From: Escherichia phage vB_vPM_PD112
Sequence record: NC_054928.1
Strand: one strand, 5' to 3'
DNA length: 64,000 nt
A model generated the notes under the pieces. That model was not told where the DNA came from. It saw only the letters and a program-made list of their open reading frames with translations, and did no database searches. The stretch's first letter is position 1, and every line of letters starts with the position of its first letter. The translations under genes and the position numbers were made by a program. Of this stretch, positions 16,398 to 22,136 are shown one piece after another.

Positions 16398-16718
16398 TTA
16401 ATCTTCTATGATATCTCTATCATATCCAAGTGAAATGAGAGTTTCTTTGAAGTGTTTAATGTTCTTTTGTCTAGAATCATTAATGAAAATGACTGGATAA
16501 CGAATGTTAAGAGATGTGAATCCAGCGCGTTTAGCAAGAGATACAATCAGTGGACGATCATACTCAATCTTACCATTATTTGTAAGAACTTTATAGAAAG
16601 TAAAAGGAGCATTGAGCTCCTTTAGAAGTTTTGTAACTGATTGACATCCAGGACAACGACCTACTTCATCTGGAATTCCATAGACTTCAATCTTATTCTT
16701 TGAGTTCGAGTTTTGTTC
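16398..16718 (-). CDS. nrdH: glutaredoxin-like NrdH; start uncertain (GTG at 16718 suggested, track ORF extends to 16850)
   Basis: CPGC redox motif and cis-Pro region YPVIFIN typical of glutaredoxin fold. Confidence 0.6.
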   Translation of the reverse strand, partial: EQNSNSKNKIEVYGIPDEVGRCPGCQSVTKLLKELNAPFTFYKVLTNNGKIEYDRPLIVSLAKRAGFTSLNIRYPVIFINDSRQKNIKHFKETLISLGYDRDIIED

Positions 16719-17004
16719 CACGAGAAATAATTCCTTGATAAGCCCAGTATGGCGGGTTAACAGAATCATCGCCAGAATTTTCTTCAGGAAAATAAACCTG
16801 GATAACAAATCCAGATGCATCAAAGGTAAAATAAACCGTAGGCAGTTCACCTAACAATTCAGCACGAGCATTAATTTCTTCGAGATCTCGTTCACGTCCA
16901 GCCCAAAAACTAGGATTTAGACTACATTCATAGAAATAATAGTCATTACCGAACATATCAAAACCCTTCCAACTCTCTACCACATATCGCTCAAAACTAA
17001 TCAT
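16693..17004 (-). CDS. hypothetical protein
   Basis: 103 aa ORF. Confidence 0.4.
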   Translation of the reverse strand: MISFERYVVESWKGFDMFGNDYYFYECSLNPSFWAGRERDLEEINARAELLGELPTVYFTFDASGFVIQVYFPEENSGDDSVNPPYWAYQGIISRGTKLELKE

Positions 17005-17006
17005 AA

Positions 17007-17222
17007 TTAGGCCTTTTTATCAAGAACAGCATTTAGTTTGTTAGTAATTTTATCCAGACGCTCATTGAACTCGCTAGAAGATAGTCCTTTTTCTGGAGAA
17101 ATTAAGCTAATCACGAAAAATATAGCAATAAAAGGAATAAGAAAAATAGCACCAACTGCCATAAACAAAAAGAACGTTACAGTTGTAAGAAAATCAGCTA
17201 AACCTTTACGAAATTTATACAT
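17007..17222 (-). CDS. small membrane protein (two TM segments)
   Basis: 71 aa, hydrophobic hairpin. Confidence 0.45.
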   Translation of the reverse strand: MYKFRKGLADFLTTVTFFLFMAVGAIFLIPFIAIFFVISLISPEKGLSSSEFNERLDKITNKLNAVLDKKA

Positions 17223-17337
17223 ATTTTACCCTTAATTGATTAACCAAGCATTGATAAGCACTAAACTATACTGTGAATAAAATTCTGGACCAAAATGAAA
17301 AATCATATCATTTATAGTATCCATAATGTAATTCAAT

Positions 17338-17808
17338 TTAATCATGTTTCCACACCCCATCGGTATTTGACCAAAGTCGCTGATTATCTGATCCTCGCCA
17401 CAGCTTTTTGGTCGGAAGATTTTTCTCATACTTCCCATCAATAATAACATCAACATATTTAAGCATTTCTAGTTGTTTAATATCTTCAAACTTATATCCT
17501 GTCCACAACCAAATGCTTTTATTGGGATAAAGATTTTTTACTGTTTGAACAATGCAATGAACATCATCTCGGTTATCAGGATAAAGAGGGTCTCCTCCAG
17601 TTATAGTTAATCCTTCTATATAATCATTATTCAAACATTCAATTAATTGTTCTAGTGTTTCACCAGTGAATGGAACGCCATTTCTAGCATTCCATGTTGA
17701 TTTATTATAACACCCTTCACATTTATGCAAACACCCCGTAACGAAAAGAACGACCCTGCATCCAGGGCCATTTACAAAGCAGCACGGGTATATTCTGTCA
17801 TAATTCAT
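17338..17808 (-). CDS. nrdG: anaerobic ribonucleotide reductase activating protein (radical SAM)
   Basis: Cys cluster CxxxCxxC (GCLHKCEGCYN); adjacent nrdD. Confidence 0.85.
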   Translation of the reverse strand: MNYDRIYPCCFVNGPGCRVVLFVTGCLHKCEGCYNKSTWNARNGVPFTGETLEQLIECLNNDYIEGLTITGGDPLYPDNRDDVHCIVQTVKNLYPNKSIWLWTGYKFEDIKQLEMLKYVDVIIDGKYEKNLPTKKLWRGSDNQRLWSNTDGVWKHD

Positions 17809-18047
17809 AATAATATCCAATTTTTCCAAGCTTCATCAGTAGAATTACAGCGTTTTAGTATAAGATGTCTAGAAACTTTTATGGCATTTGAGCACTTTTT
17901 AATTGAATCATATTTTAATAAAGCGGCACGAATCAATGTTCCTGACCCCATATAACCGTCATTTATGTTATCGGTGCTATGCGCACCGATATATTCCTTT
18001 GAATTAATTATATTTGTTATTTTATAAATTATATAATACCTATGCAT
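17805..18047 (-). pseudogene. truncated GIY-YIG homing endonuclease remnant (segB-like N-terminal half only)
   Basis: YIIYKITNIINSKEYIGAHSTDNINDGYMGSG parallels segB N-terminus; 80 aa, no DNA-binding domain; fills nrdG-nrdD gap. Confidence 0.5.
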
Positions 18048-19857
18048 GTTTTACTCGTTTTACCATTTCTTTCATTTTACCTAAATTCCATGGAACAACG
18101 CTAGGAGTTCCAAGATATCCGCATGTTCTTCTTATGGTGTTCATCTTTTTAGGATCAGTTTCTCCACAAATAGAACAAACAAATCCGTTCTCGGTTGGAG
18201 TCATTTCATGGGTACTTCCACACGTAAAACATTTATCTACTGGCATATTAACGCCAAAATAATCTAAATGTTGTGCAGCATAATCCCATACAGCCTCAAG
18301 GCCTTTTAGGTTATTTTTCATATCAGGAAGTTCAACATAAGAAATGTGACCGCCTGTCGCGATGAAATGATATGGGGCTTCGCGAGAAATCTTTTCAAAT
18401 GGAGTAATATTTTCTTCTACTGAAACGTGGAAACTGTTAGTGTACCAGCCTTTATCAGTAACATCTTTTACACTTCCATATTTTTCGGTATCAAGTTTAC
18501 AGAAGCGATAGCACAGGTTTTCAGCAGGAGTAGAATACAAGCTAAAAGCAAATCCGGTTCTTTCAGTCCACTGCTTAAGATGAGTATTCATTTTAGTTAA
18601 AATTTCTTGTCCAATATCACGACCGACAAGAATATTCAATTCGTGAATACCAATGTATCCTAGGGACACTGAACTTCTACCATTTTTAAATAACTCAATT
18701 ATATCGTCATCAGGTTTAAGACGAACCCCGAATGCACCTTCCTGGTAAAGAATAGGAGCAACAGTAGCTTTAACTCCTTTTAAGGAACTAATTCTACACA
18801 TCAATGCTTCAAAACATAAATCCATTCGTTCATTGAACAATTCGGCAAATTTCTGTTCATTGAACTGTGTTCCAATATAAGAATCTAATGCAATACGAGG
18901 AAGATTCAGTGTTACAACACCAAGATTATTACGTCCATCAAGAATTTCATTACCAGTCGAATCTTTCCATACGCCCAAGAAACTACGGCAACCCATTGGA
19001 GAAACAGGAATAGATGAACCGGTGATAGCTTTATTGTTCTTAGCCGAAATGATGTCAGGATACATTCTTTTGCTTGCGCACTCTAAAGCAAGCTGCTTAA
19101 TATCATAGTTCGGATCGTCTTTATAAAGATTAACACCTTCTTCAACGAACATAACAAGTTTAGGGAAAATAGGAGTTATCCCATCACGACCGAGACCTTT
19201 AATACGATTTTTCAGAATTGCTTTCTGAATCATTCGTTCAGTCCAGTCAGTTCCCGTACCAAATGTAATTGTTACAAAAGGAGTTTGTCCGTTTGAACTA
19301 AAGAGAGTATTTACTTCATATTCATAAGCTTGGAACGCATCGTATACGTCTTTTTCTGTTTTAGATTGGGCATAATTCAACGCATCAGTGATTTGCCATT
19401 TTTCCGCGTCCTCAATATGTTTCGCATAGGTGCGTTTAACATAAGGAGAAAGTACTTTATCTACATTCGCAAAAGTCGTTCCGCCATATTGATGAGAAGC
19501 AACCTGTGCAGTAATTTGTGCCATAATTGCAGTAGCAACGCCAATTGATTTAGGAGTTTCAATCTGTGCATTACCGAGCTTAAATCCGTTCTCAAGCATT
19601 CCTTTTAAATCTACTAAACAGCAATTAGTAAAAGGCAATGATATACTGTAATCTAAATCATGAAAATGAATTAACCCGGCATTATGAGCATTTACAATAT
19701 GGCTTGGAAGAATACTGCAAGCGATATGTTTAGAAACAATACCGGCCATTAAATCTCTTTTTGTTGGAAAGACACGAGAATCTTTGTTGGCGTTTTCGGT
19801 ATTTAATTCTTTATCTTTATTTGAAATAAAATTTAAAACATCTTTCTCTAAAGACAT
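18040..19857 (-). CDS. nrdD: anaerobic ribonucleoside-triphosphate reductase (uninterrupted, no intron)
   Basis: 605 aa contiguous ORF, T4 NrdD length; C-terminal Zn-ribbon CxxC...CxxC and glycyl-radical region. Confidence 0.9.
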   Translation of the reverse strand: MSLEKDVLNFISNKDKELNTENANKDSRVFPTKRDLMAGIVSKHIACSILPSHIVNAHNAGLIHFHDLDYSISLPFTNCCLVDLKGMLENGFKLGNAQIETPKSIGVATAIMAQITAQVASHQYGGTTFANVDKVLSPYVKRTYAKHIEDAEKWQITDALNYAQSKTEKDVYDAFQAYEYEVNTLFSSNGQTPFVTITFGTGTDWTERMIQKAILKNRIKGLGRDGITPIFPKLVMFVEEGVNLYKDDPNYDIKQLALECASKRMYPDIISAKNNKAITGSSIPVSPMGCRSFLGVWKDSTGNEILDGRNNLGVVTLNLPRIALDSYIGTQFNEQKFAELFNERMDLCFEALMCRISSLKGVKATVAPILYQEGAFGVRLKPDDDIIELFKNGRSSVSLGYIGIHELNILVGRDIGQEILTKMNTHLKQWTERTGFAFSLYSTPAENLCYRFCKLDTEKYGSVKDVTDKGWYTNSFHVSVEENITPFEKISREAPYHFIATGGHISYVELPDMKNNLKGLEAVWDYAAQHLDYFGVNMPVDKCFTCGSTHEMTPTENGFVCSICGETDPKKMNTIRRTCGYLGTPSVVPWNLGKMKEMVKRVKHA

Positions 19858-20669
19858 AATTCTAATTTATCCTTTTGAAATTCTTCGTCTAAATATGGGT
19901 TCCAACCCATTTTAAACCTTTTGATGAAATTATCAATTCTAAATTTCGGTAAGTTTAAATCCGCAAAAATAGATGATTTACTTTTAAAATCTGGACCTAA
20001 ATAATCATATAAAATTTCTGCGTATTTTAACCATAATATATAAGTACCAGATTTAATTGCTCTCGGAGTTTTCCAAGGTTTTACACCATACATCGGATTT
20101 CCACTTCCTTTATGCCTGATAGAAGATGAAATTCCAATTTTAATTTTAGCTTCCTCTGTATGCGAAAATCCATGATGTGGATTTTCTTTCCAGTATTTTT
20201 TAGAAGCTTCTGATATTTTCTTTCTGGCTAAATTAGTATGATGCTTTCCATAAAATCCATGATTTTTACCTTTATTACGATTTCTTTTAATCATGGTTAT
20301 TGATTGCTTTTTTCTAGTTTCTTTAGAAGGAGAAACACCGTATGTTGTAAATTGACCATTAGCATATGCTAAATTAAAATACTCTTTATTCCATATATCT
20401 TTTTCTATATTCTTTTGAAATTCAGCTTCAATGCTAGTTATTTGCTCATCTCCGACTAATTGAAAATATAATATTTCAACTTTCGGCGTTTCTTTCAACA
20501 GGGCTTTTTGAAATTCGGAAGATGACGAAGACGAATAATAAAATTTACCATTTTTATCAATAATATTCGTTCCGTCAAAAGTGCAATTGGTTTTACTTCC
20601 AATATAATAATACGGCGGGGTTTTAGCATTAATTCTACTAATAAATGATAGTTTATATACTACATTCAT
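19848..20669 (-). CDS. free-standing GIY-YIG homing endonuclease with NUMOD3-like DNA-binding repeats
   Basis: N-terminal VVYKL...YYYIGSKTN; repeats GKHHTNLARKKISEASK and GFSHTEEAKIKIGIS; wedged between 49 and nrdD with coupled overlaps. Confidence 0.65.
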   Translation of the reverse strand: MNVVYKLSFISRINAKTPPYYYIGSKTNCTFDGTNIIDKNGKFYYSSSSSSEFQKALLKETPKVEILYFQLVGDEQITSIEAEFQKNIEKDIWNKEYFNLAYANGQFTTYGVSPSKETRKKQSITMIKRNRNKGKNHGFYGKHHTNLARKKISEASKKYWKENPHHGFSHTEEAKIKIGISSSIRHKGSGNPMYGVKPWKTPRAIKSGTYILWLKYAEILYDYLGPDFKSKSSIFADLNLPKFRIDNFIKRFKMGWNPYLDEEFQKDKLELCL

Positions 20670-21139
20670 TTTAAACTCTTTCTAAGCTGCTTCTTAAATG
20701 AAGCTATTAATTGTGTTTTGGTGTCAGATTCATTATATTCAAATCCTCTTTGAAGCATCTCAGCCATCATTTCCTCTTTTCCTAAACGAGAAAATTCCTT
20801 TGATTTATCTCCAACGAAGTTAGGGTGAATATTATTTTGGGTGTAATCGGATTTTAAATAAGTAAGTAAATTTTCTAACCATTCAAGATAATCAACGCCT
20901 TGTCCCTTTAAGCCAGAACGATTAAATTTGTGTTTCATTTGACCTTCTGCAGCATTACACAGATTACAAAGCAATCCACGTACCTTTCCAGCTTTCGGTC
21001 CATTTAATTCATGGTCATGGTCAAGGTGATTAGCTTGAACATCAGGATTTAGTTCTCGTTGGCAAATTAAGCATTTACCGTTTTGTGCATTATAAAATTT
21101 TTGTTTTTCTTCTTTGTATAATTTGCCAGTCAATAACAT
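20666..21139 (-). CDS. 49: endonuclease VII (Holliday junction resolvase)
   Basis: 157 aa; matches T4 gp49 (CLICQRELNP...HDHELNG). Confidence 0.9.
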   Translation of the reverse strand: MLLTGKLYKEEKQKFYNAQNGKCLICQRELNPDVQANHLDHDHELNGPKAGKVRGLLCNLCNAAEGQMKHKFNRSGLKGQGVDYLEWLENLLTYLKSDYTQNNIHPNFVGDKSKEFSRLGKEEMMAEMLQRGFEYNESDTKTQLIASFKKQLRKSLK

Positions 21140-21357
21140 AATAAAACCCTTACCTTGAATAGATAAGGGTATTTATTATTTTCAAGTATTGTAAAACATT
21201 CGATGCAATCGCTTATATTGTCGAATCATCTTTTTAGTAGGACGAGAATAAGTTCCTACACAAGTGGTCATATTAGGGTCAGTAGGACTTCCTTTAATAA
21301 AAAGTTTCCAGACTTTACCACCATTTAACTTTTCAGTATAAATCAATTCAGTTTTCA

Positions 21358-21822
21358 TTAAAATGCTCGGTCAGAAAAAGAAATTTGAGTTTCAAGCCAT
21401 TCAATATATTCTGCCGCAGCTTGCATCAAATTTCCTTCATAACCATCGTTATTTTCTTGTGCAGCTAATTTAGCTAATGCATATGAAATACGTTCACCCT
21501 GAAAAGCGGCTTTAGGTTTATGAATAGCTTGATCAACTCGTTCTACGACTTCTTCAATTTCGCCATTTTCTACTGATTCAGTGTTCCACAAGCACCAATA
21601 GGCAGTTGGCTTATCGTAGATGTTAATAATCTTTCCATCAGAAAGTTCAATTTCAATAATTCCAATATCAGGTTCTATATCATCTTCACATTCTTTTACA
21701 AGTTCACGAACTTTAAAGACAGTACCTGCACTAAGTTCCGGCCAGTAATTACACAGCTCTTTATCAGCACGATTAATTCTAAACCACTTATCTACTGCAA
21801 TCATGTCCCATCTCCATATCAA
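21358..21822 (-). CDS. pin: protease inhibitor Pin-like
   Basis: 154 aa, T4 pin position after 49. Confidence 0.6.
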   Translation of the reverse strand: MIWRWDMIAVDKWFRINRADKELCNYWPELSAGTVFKVRELVKECEDDIEPDIGIIEIELSDGKIINIYDKPTAYWCLWNTESVENGEIEEVVERVDQAIHKPKAAFQGERISYALAKLAAQENNDGYEGNLMQAAAEYIEWLETQISFSDRAF

Positions 21823-21926
21823 TTATGTCATTTATTGTAGGTTCATTATATACTGTTTCTTCATCAGTGTAAACCGGTTCTTCCGGCTCTGGCTCTACAG
21901 TTTCCCATCTAACCGCCCACCAAGGT

Positions 21927-22136
21927 TTAACCCCGAAGCTTATTAAGTTCTTCATAATCAATCCAGGATTCTAGTCCTGATGGCAAATCATATTCAATTT
22001 CCCAAAGAAGTTCTTCAATTTTCTGAAGACGATCTAATTCTTCAGCTGGAATAGTAACCATTGACGGAGCTCTTGCTACATTAATATCGTAAATCATATT
22101 TACCCCAGTTTGACCATACAATCGCCGTATTTCCAC
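21927..22136 (-). CDS. hypothetical protein
   Basis: 69 aa ORF. Confidence 0.4.
   Translation of the reverse strand: MEIRRLYGQTGVNMIYDINVARAPSMVTIPAEELDRLQKIEELLWEIEYDLPSGLESWIDYEELNKLRG

Follow-up and report, generated by a model that had tools for sequence, protein, structure and literature searches.

Free-standing homing endonucleases of phage T4 cleave DNA away from their own genes, and the flanks are co-converted when the gene is inherited (PMC2988022). SegA–F are free-standing GIY-YIG genes that lie between conserved genes, occur sporadically and encode a nuclease domain followed by a NUMOD-type DNA-binding region (PMC2988022). SegG is listed as active and free-standing, with its target in the neighbouring gene 32 and with co-conversion, and the target of I-TevII is nrdD (PMC2988022). 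SegH of T4-related phages is also grouped with the free-standing Seg genes by the title of a work cited in that review. The junction between gene 49 and nrdD is absent from the table of T4 endonuclease sites in the same 2010 review (PMC2988022). Here we describe an endonuclease gene at this junction in Escherichia phage vB_vPM_PD112 (NC_054928.1), analysed as a stretch of 64,000 nucleotides (nt) that we refer to as the window and in which all coordinates are given unless another locus is named. The gene spans 19848–20669 on the minus strand, starts with ATG and encodes a SegG-like protein of 273 amino acids (aa). Like SegA–F, it is a free-standing GIY-YIG gene of sporadic occurrence between conserved genes, with a nuclease domain and a NUMOD-type region. 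Our analysis makes it likely that the gene is a free-standing Seg-type homing endonuclease, with a SegG-like GIY-YIG domain, NUMOD3 repeats and a helical C-terminus, and that it forms one mobile cassette with nt 1–225 of nrdD.

The closest T4 protein is SegG (gene 32.1), with 40% identity over aa 1–128 (E = 5e-27, BLASTP), whereas overall identity to the other T4 Seg proteins is only 15–26%. Both SegG and the endonuclease contain the same atypical domain, MNxVY...PPYYYIGSK.NC...Y.SS...E...YFN, which is missed by the Pfam model PF01541. Both are encoded by free-standing genes without their own promoter that overlap or abut a neighbouring essential gene. In contrast to SegG, which is located between genes 59 and 32, the endonuclease described here is found at 49/nrdD and has a different presumed target gene. 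It is also 63 aa longer and carries NUMOD3 repeats, none of which was detected by Pfam in SegG. The SegA–E domain represents a short form (YIG.HST..DDGYMGSG), whereas the endonuclease has the SegG form with a beta-hairpin insert. I-TevII is a member of the same superfamily and likewise has a NUMOD3-like stretch, but it is encoded by an intron at nrdD nt 538 rather than by a free-standing gene at the 5′ end, and it is 25% identical to the endonuclease.

The N-terminal nuclease domain (aa 1 to ~105, 20355–20669, minus strand) was assigned to the SegG subfamily of the GIY-YIG fold, of which it is a divergent representative. Its best PHROG match was phrog_7504, "homing endonuclease" (E = 9e-34 over aa 1–126). 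This match, together with 97–99% nucleotide identity across 48 phage records, excludes a chance open reading frame (ORF). The initial annotation had assigned the protein to the GIY-YIG/NUMOD3 type, and this identity held: in a MAFFT alignment with the T4 GIY-YIG proteins, all taken from NC_000866, residues Y22, G24, S47 and N99 were invariant across the T4 Seg proteins, I-TevI and I-TevII. A fold search supported the same assignment, to the alpha/beta GIY-YIG fold. PF01541 (GIY-YIG) gave no match to the endonuclease at E ≤ 0.1, and a PDB sequence search returned none even at E ≤ 10. Because T4 SegG is likewise unmatched by PF01541, whereas SegA and I-TevI are matched, the lack of a Pfam match is a trait of the SegG subfamily and does not argue against homology. 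For annotation purposes, this means that the SegG-type nuclease domain is not covered by the Pfam GIY-YIG model.

An exhaustive phmmer search found the domain in 146 cluster representatives at E ≤ 0.001, with an N-terminal start in nearly all of them. Among 145 aligned relatives, residues Y5, Y22, I23, G24, S25, K26, Y44, S47, E81 and N99 were invariant or nearly so. The GIY-type motif is represented by VVY (Y5, in 142 of 142 relatives) and the YIG motif by Y22-I23-G24 (Y22 and G24, each in 144 of 144). The equivalent of the catalytic glutamate, E81, is present in 143 of 145 relatives and the downstream asparagine, N99, in all 145. No arginine of the endonuclease aligns with the classical catalytic residue (R27 of I-TevI), and the same holds for T4 SegG, which is listed as active (PMC2988022). 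In the I-TevI catalytic domain (PDB 1LN0), Arg27 is located on a helix; the predicted model of the endonuclease does not have this helix, and residues 27–50 form beta-hairpins in its place. Conserved basic residues are K26 (143 of 144 relatives) and R12 (114 of 127), which we consider candidates for the basic catalytic residue.

The nuclease domain is followed by NUMOD3 repeats (aa ~130–195, 20085–20282, minus strand), presumed to form a DNA-binding linker. PF07460 (NUMOD3) was the only Pfam family matched by the endonuclease (E = 1.1e-8), in two stretches of which the best covers aa 130–153. The motifs GKNHGFYGKHHT, HHGFSHTEEAK and GSGNPMYG are recognisable in the translation, and two or three repeats are present in the middle of the protein. 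The remaining 78 residues (aa 196–273, 19851–20084, minus strand) were predicted to be helical with low confidence (predicted local distance difference test score 50–60) and are presumed to act as the sequence-specific DNA-binding domain. This region is common to protein P0002 and, in part, to P0004. Homology with the SegG tail was hinted at by MAFFT but was rejected, as BLASTP detected no similarity between the two C-terminal regions. Another 273-aa protein (P0003; locus L067, 5001–5822, metagenomic contig ERZ13617658) combines a SegG-type nuclease domain that is 56% identical with a different C-terminal half. Its gene lies between gp5 and a 5.1-like gene, in a neighbourhood where T4 has segC. 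This fits a picture in which one nuclease domain is joined to various DNA-binding modules at various sites.

The distribution of the gene is sporadic. Megablast detected it in 48 phage records at 97–99% nucleotide identity, a count that includes both GenBank and RefSeq copies of some phages. In every carrier record with usable annotation it was placed between gene 49 and nrdD. When both flanks were searched together as a 2-kb query, 747 records matched, of which 47 covered the insert; the gene is thus missing from ~93% of related phage records. Carriers were identified in two genera, including MLP2, G8, fPS-2 and Lutter in Tequatrovirus and phage 55 and JK42 in Mosigvirus. Since scanning IMG/VR with the protein yielded only two loci, and a gp49 scan returned mostly distant phages, GenBank phage records were sampled singly for the comparisons described below. 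An empty junction, AGTTTAAAATGA, is present in T4, RB69 and nine further phages of the sample; here the start codon of nrdD and the stop codon of gene 49 overlap (ATGA). The possibility that the gene is a conserved T4 component of this site is therefore removed: in T4, gene 49 runs straight into nrdD, the stop codon of one and the start codon of the other sharing the ATGA. The gene lies outside any intron or intein, between conserved genes and in their orientation. Its sporadic presence at one fixed site is that of a Seg-type free-standing gene, as initially proposed, with T4 SegG as the nearest T4 relative and about 47 of 747 records carrying it.

The gene is accompanied by a divergent 5′ tract of nrdD (nrdD nt 1–225, 19633–19857, minus strand), which was delineated from identity profiles. 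All 10 carriers sampled contain a single haplotype of this tract, at least 90% identical among themselves, whereas all 11 sampled non-carriers have another haplotype that is 55–78% identical to the carrier type. From about nrdD nt 240 onward, identity returns to ~95% among all sampled genomes. At the protein level, the first 80 residues of NrdD are 65% identical between the two types. When the NrdD N-terminus was used in tblastn, 48 records matched at 90% or more and the next best match was at 65%, with no intermediate among sequenced phages. Megablast with the 225-nt tract alone returned exactly 48 records, at coordinates adjoining the endonuclease gene. In comparison with T4, the proportions of synonymous (pS) and nonsynonymous (pN) differences are 0.75 and 0.28 in the tract, and 0.21 and 0.004 in nrdD nt 226–537. 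Based on the former values, the tract is the orthologous segment of a much more distant lineage and not a lightly recoded copy. An allele of nrdD nt 1–225 linked to the gene in all carriers, across two genera, corresponds to the co-conversion characteristic of Seg-type genes. We presume that the tract is an immune allele and that the corresponding segment in endonuclease-free phages contains the target.

No linked haplotype was found on the upstream side, in gene 49, when diagnostic sites were compared. Gene 49 of the Mosigvirus carriers has the Mosigvirus base at 60–62 of 62 such sites, none of them beyond nt 360. The final 114 nt of the gene (20666–20779) are 93–100% identical across both genera and represent a conserved left homology arm. 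The cassette is 97–99% identical between Tequatrovirus and Mosigvirus, whereas the adjacent gene 49 is only 67–83% identical over most of its length, which implies that this segment alone was transferred recently and in a focused manner. The cassette is bounded on the left by the ATGA of the gene 49 stop codon and on the right within nrdD nt 225–278; the unit moved between the genera with the conserved end of gene 49 on the left and nrdD nt 225–278 on the right. As judged from these alignments, the mobile unit would measure ~1.05 kb and comprise the endonuclease ORF plus the first 225 nt of nrdD. A precise insertion between gene 49 and nrdD, as first described, is thus correct for the position of the ORF at the junction but incomplete, in that a replaced nrdD 5′ tract of ~225 nt comes along with it. 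Natural data already define the extent of the mobile unit, the homology arms on either side and a 225-bp candidate target window.

By analogy with the described systems, we infer that the enzyme cuts endonuclease-free nrdD in the region of nt 1–225 and that the linked allele resists cleavage. During mixed infection, a phage without the gene would be cut either in its nrdD 5′ region or at its 49/nrdD junction. Resection would then widen the break through the non-homologous DNA until it reached the conserved gene 49 terminus in one direction and nrdD sequence past nt 225 in the opposite one. With the carrier genome as template, repair would copy both the endonuclease gene and the divergent nrdD tract, whose many substitutions would protect the carrier from its own enzyme. 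Because repair would have to extend to homologous sequence on either side of the non-homologous block, this scheme would account for the fixed cassette boundaries and for the constant association of the gene with a divergent, presumably uncuttable tract.

A more specific version of this scenario is a natural module swap, in which an enzyme with a non-canonical active site (Lys26 and/or Arg12 in place of the arginine) would cut in the first 225 bp of nrdD and drive a foreign N-terminal segment of the essential NrdD across genera. We regard this version as possible but somewhat doubtful. No endonuclease-free source of the segment is present among sequenced phages, and the approximate break point would be marked by a stub in a distant relative, as follows. 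A metagenomic contig (Logan SRR27536177; locus L069, 2188–3180) derives from a distant T4-like phage in which gp49 is 64% and the NrdD core 71% identical. At the same site it contains a decayed homologue of the endonuclease with stop codons (58% identical, 68% at the nucleotide level). Upstream of this homologue is a 55-codon stub of a different, resident nrdD 5′ end, whose stop codon overlaps the endonuclease ATG as ATGA. The end of the stub near codon 55 is compatible with a break in that area, although it is a weak clue.

Other degenerate copies were identified at this site. In Pu-Krd-SF4, a 1-nt insertion in the endonuclease gene truncates the annotated product to 245 aa. In OLB35 (Mosigvirus; locus L070, 2480–2720, from a record marked UNVERIFIED), the endonuclease gene was lost by an in-frame deletion that fused its first seven codons (MNVVYKL) to approximately codon 8 of the linked nrdD allele. 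This deletion left an endonuclease-free phage with the carrier-type, presumably immune, tract. Intact, frameshifted, precisely deleted and long-decayed copies, and hence all stages of the life cycle of a homing endonuclease, are found in public genomes.

Such copies also bear on whether the gene is an inactive or decaying relic whose cassette entered one ancestor once, by recombining with a distant T4-like phage, and is now spread solely through general homologous exchange in two shared flanks, the conserved gene 49 end and the part of nrdD past nt 225. Four observations favour this reading over an active homing enzyme: the atypical active site without the canonical arginine, the missing Pfam GIY-YIG match, the degenerate copies themselves and a right-hand boundary that is the same in all copies. 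However, nearly all of the ~47 carriers have an intact ORF, which is under purifying selection (pN/pS 0.18 over all pairs of copies). The Tyr, Tyr, Glu and Asn positions of the nuclease domain are maintained across 145 relatives, and T4 SegG, which has the same atypical domain, is listed as active (PMC2988022). A relic would also not be expected to show a cassette 97–99% identical in two genera next to a gene 49 at 67–83%. We therefore consider the relic explanation unlikely, and an active homing endonuclease with a linked nrdD allele remains our preferred interpretation.

The junctions indicate how the gene is likely to be expressed. Gene 49 (endonuclease VII; 20666–21139, minus strand) was identified by the Pfam families Endonuclease_7 and Endonuc-dimeris, and nrdD occupies 18040–19857 on the same strand. 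The previously noted 273-aa ORF between them, with overlaps of a few nucleotides, was confirmed on the minus strand: the gene 49 stop codon and the endonuclease ATG share the 4-nt ATGA (20666–20669), and the 3′ end of the endonuclease gene overlaps the start of nrdD by 10 nt (19848–19857). The nrdD ATG ends at 19857, with the endonuclease stop located 10 nt within nrdD. Carriers have AGTTTAAAATGAATG at the junction, and non-carriers have AGTTTAAAATGACAA or AGTTTAAAATGAAAA. The endonuclease ATG in carriers occupies the exact position of the nrdD ATG in insert-free phages, and the gene has therefore taken over the nrdD translation start region, including the ribosome-binding site and the coupling to gene 49. 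Since both the Shine-Dalgarno sequence and the start position of nrdD were taken over, the endonuclease is probably expressed by translational coupling to gene 49. The reading frames place the nrdD start of carriers at a new site, predicted to lie within the endonuclease 3′ end.

No T4 late-promoter motif (TATAAATA) was found within several kb of the endonuclease gene, and sigma-70-like matches occurred at chance level (13, versus 9.5 ± 3.2 in shuffled sequence). Both results fit a promoter-less cassette that is expressed by read-through and translational coupling. One sigma-70-like match (TTGATA, 16 nt, TAAAAT; 10 of 12 positions) is located at 19909–19936 on the minus strand, within the endonuclease 3′ end, and precedes the nrdD ATG by ~50 nt. 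This match could represent an embedded nrdD promoter, although such matches are no commoner than in shuffled sequence. A gene 32 promoter embedded inside segG has been described. In the interval between pin and gene 49, immediately upstream of the latter, we observed a terminator-like hairpin of 10 pairs followed by a T run (21146–21170, minus strand), and related records annotate a terminator at this position. An Rfam match to ohsC that overlaps the hairpin (E = 0.31) is well under the gathering score and probably due to chance.

This arrangement also raises the question of whether the protein, although still active as a nuclease or in DNA binding, has ceased to promote homing of its own gene and instead excludes competing phages at another site or regulates nrdD. 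Its gene is positioned between the translation of gene 49 and that of nrdD and supplies the nrdD start region, the 19936–19909 match lies within it, and the title of Sokolov et al (2018) on SegD, cited in PMC10448857, points the same way; these favour it over homing. We nevertheless judge such a role very improbable, as strict linkage to a divergent segment of a neighbouring target gene is a specific signature of homing with an immune allele, the promoter-like matches are at the level of shuffled sequence and no late-promoter motif is nearby.

The gene is already annotated in GenBank as "homing endonuclease" and once as "SegG homing endonuclease", and we found no description of an endonuclease gene at 49/nrdD in the searchable literature. 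A Seg-type homing endonuclease at this position thus adds an uncharacterised member to a well-known kind, and as such is of modest interest. Its linked-allele structure is a natural example of textbook quality that holds no surprise and leaves the current view of homing unchanged. It also illustrates, with unusual clarity, how a homing endonuclease carries a piece of an essential gene from one phage genus to another.

The window phage is T4-like, of the Tequatrovirus type (the best match of a 12-kb query was 95–96% identical), and its nrdD is intact. In accordance with the initial annotation, nrdD is one uninterrupted ORF of 605 codons without a group I intron: the PF13597 match spans model positions 1–562 of 562 in a single 605-aa NrdD, and Rfam detected no group I intron in window positions 16500–22000 at E ≤ 1. 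As a positive control, the nrdD of phage fPS-2, which does contain an intron, was matched by RF00028 at 105.6 bits in the same Rfam search. The further suggestion that the free-standing gene is present instead of an nrdD intron was sustained for the window, where the intron is missing, but not for carriers in general, as fPS-2 contains the gene together with a group I intron in nrdD and its intron endonuclease. Mutual exclusion with I-TevII and the nrdD intron was accordingly rejected; the intron, at nt 538, lies near the end of the 2-kb query. Because fPS-2 carries both elements and the window only the free-standing gene, the endonuclease and I-TevII are independent. In Yersinia phage fPS-2 (locus L057, 3101–7022), three endonuclease genes flank or interrupt nrdD, namely the 49/nrdD gene, a group I intron after nt 538–546 that contains an I-TevII-like ORF, and a further endonuclease gene downstream.

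An additional element was observed on the other side of nrdD. An 80-aa ORF between nrdD and nrdG (17805–18047, minus strand) corresponds to a second GIY-YIG endonuclease from which an internal part has been deleted in frame. Residues 1–46 and 47–80 of this ORF match residues 1–46 and 243–276 of an intact 276-aa protein of PM136 (locus L061, 4892–5722), and it matches PHROG 314, "homing endonuclease", at 1.2e-15. At the nrdD/nrdG site, T4 has the HNH gene mobC and related phages have a SegA–E-type gene, of which the 80-aa ORF is the remnant in the window. PM136 has a GIY-YIG gene between nrdD and nrdG, as probably does fPS-2, in which the gene is cut short by the edge of the sampled locus. The last ~78 nt of nrdD in the window (~18040–18117, minus strand) are also variant, being ~62% identical to most phages and 98–100% identical to fPS-2 and PM136. 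By its identity pattern, this variant 3′ end looks like a second endonuclease-linked tract at the opposite end of nrdD.

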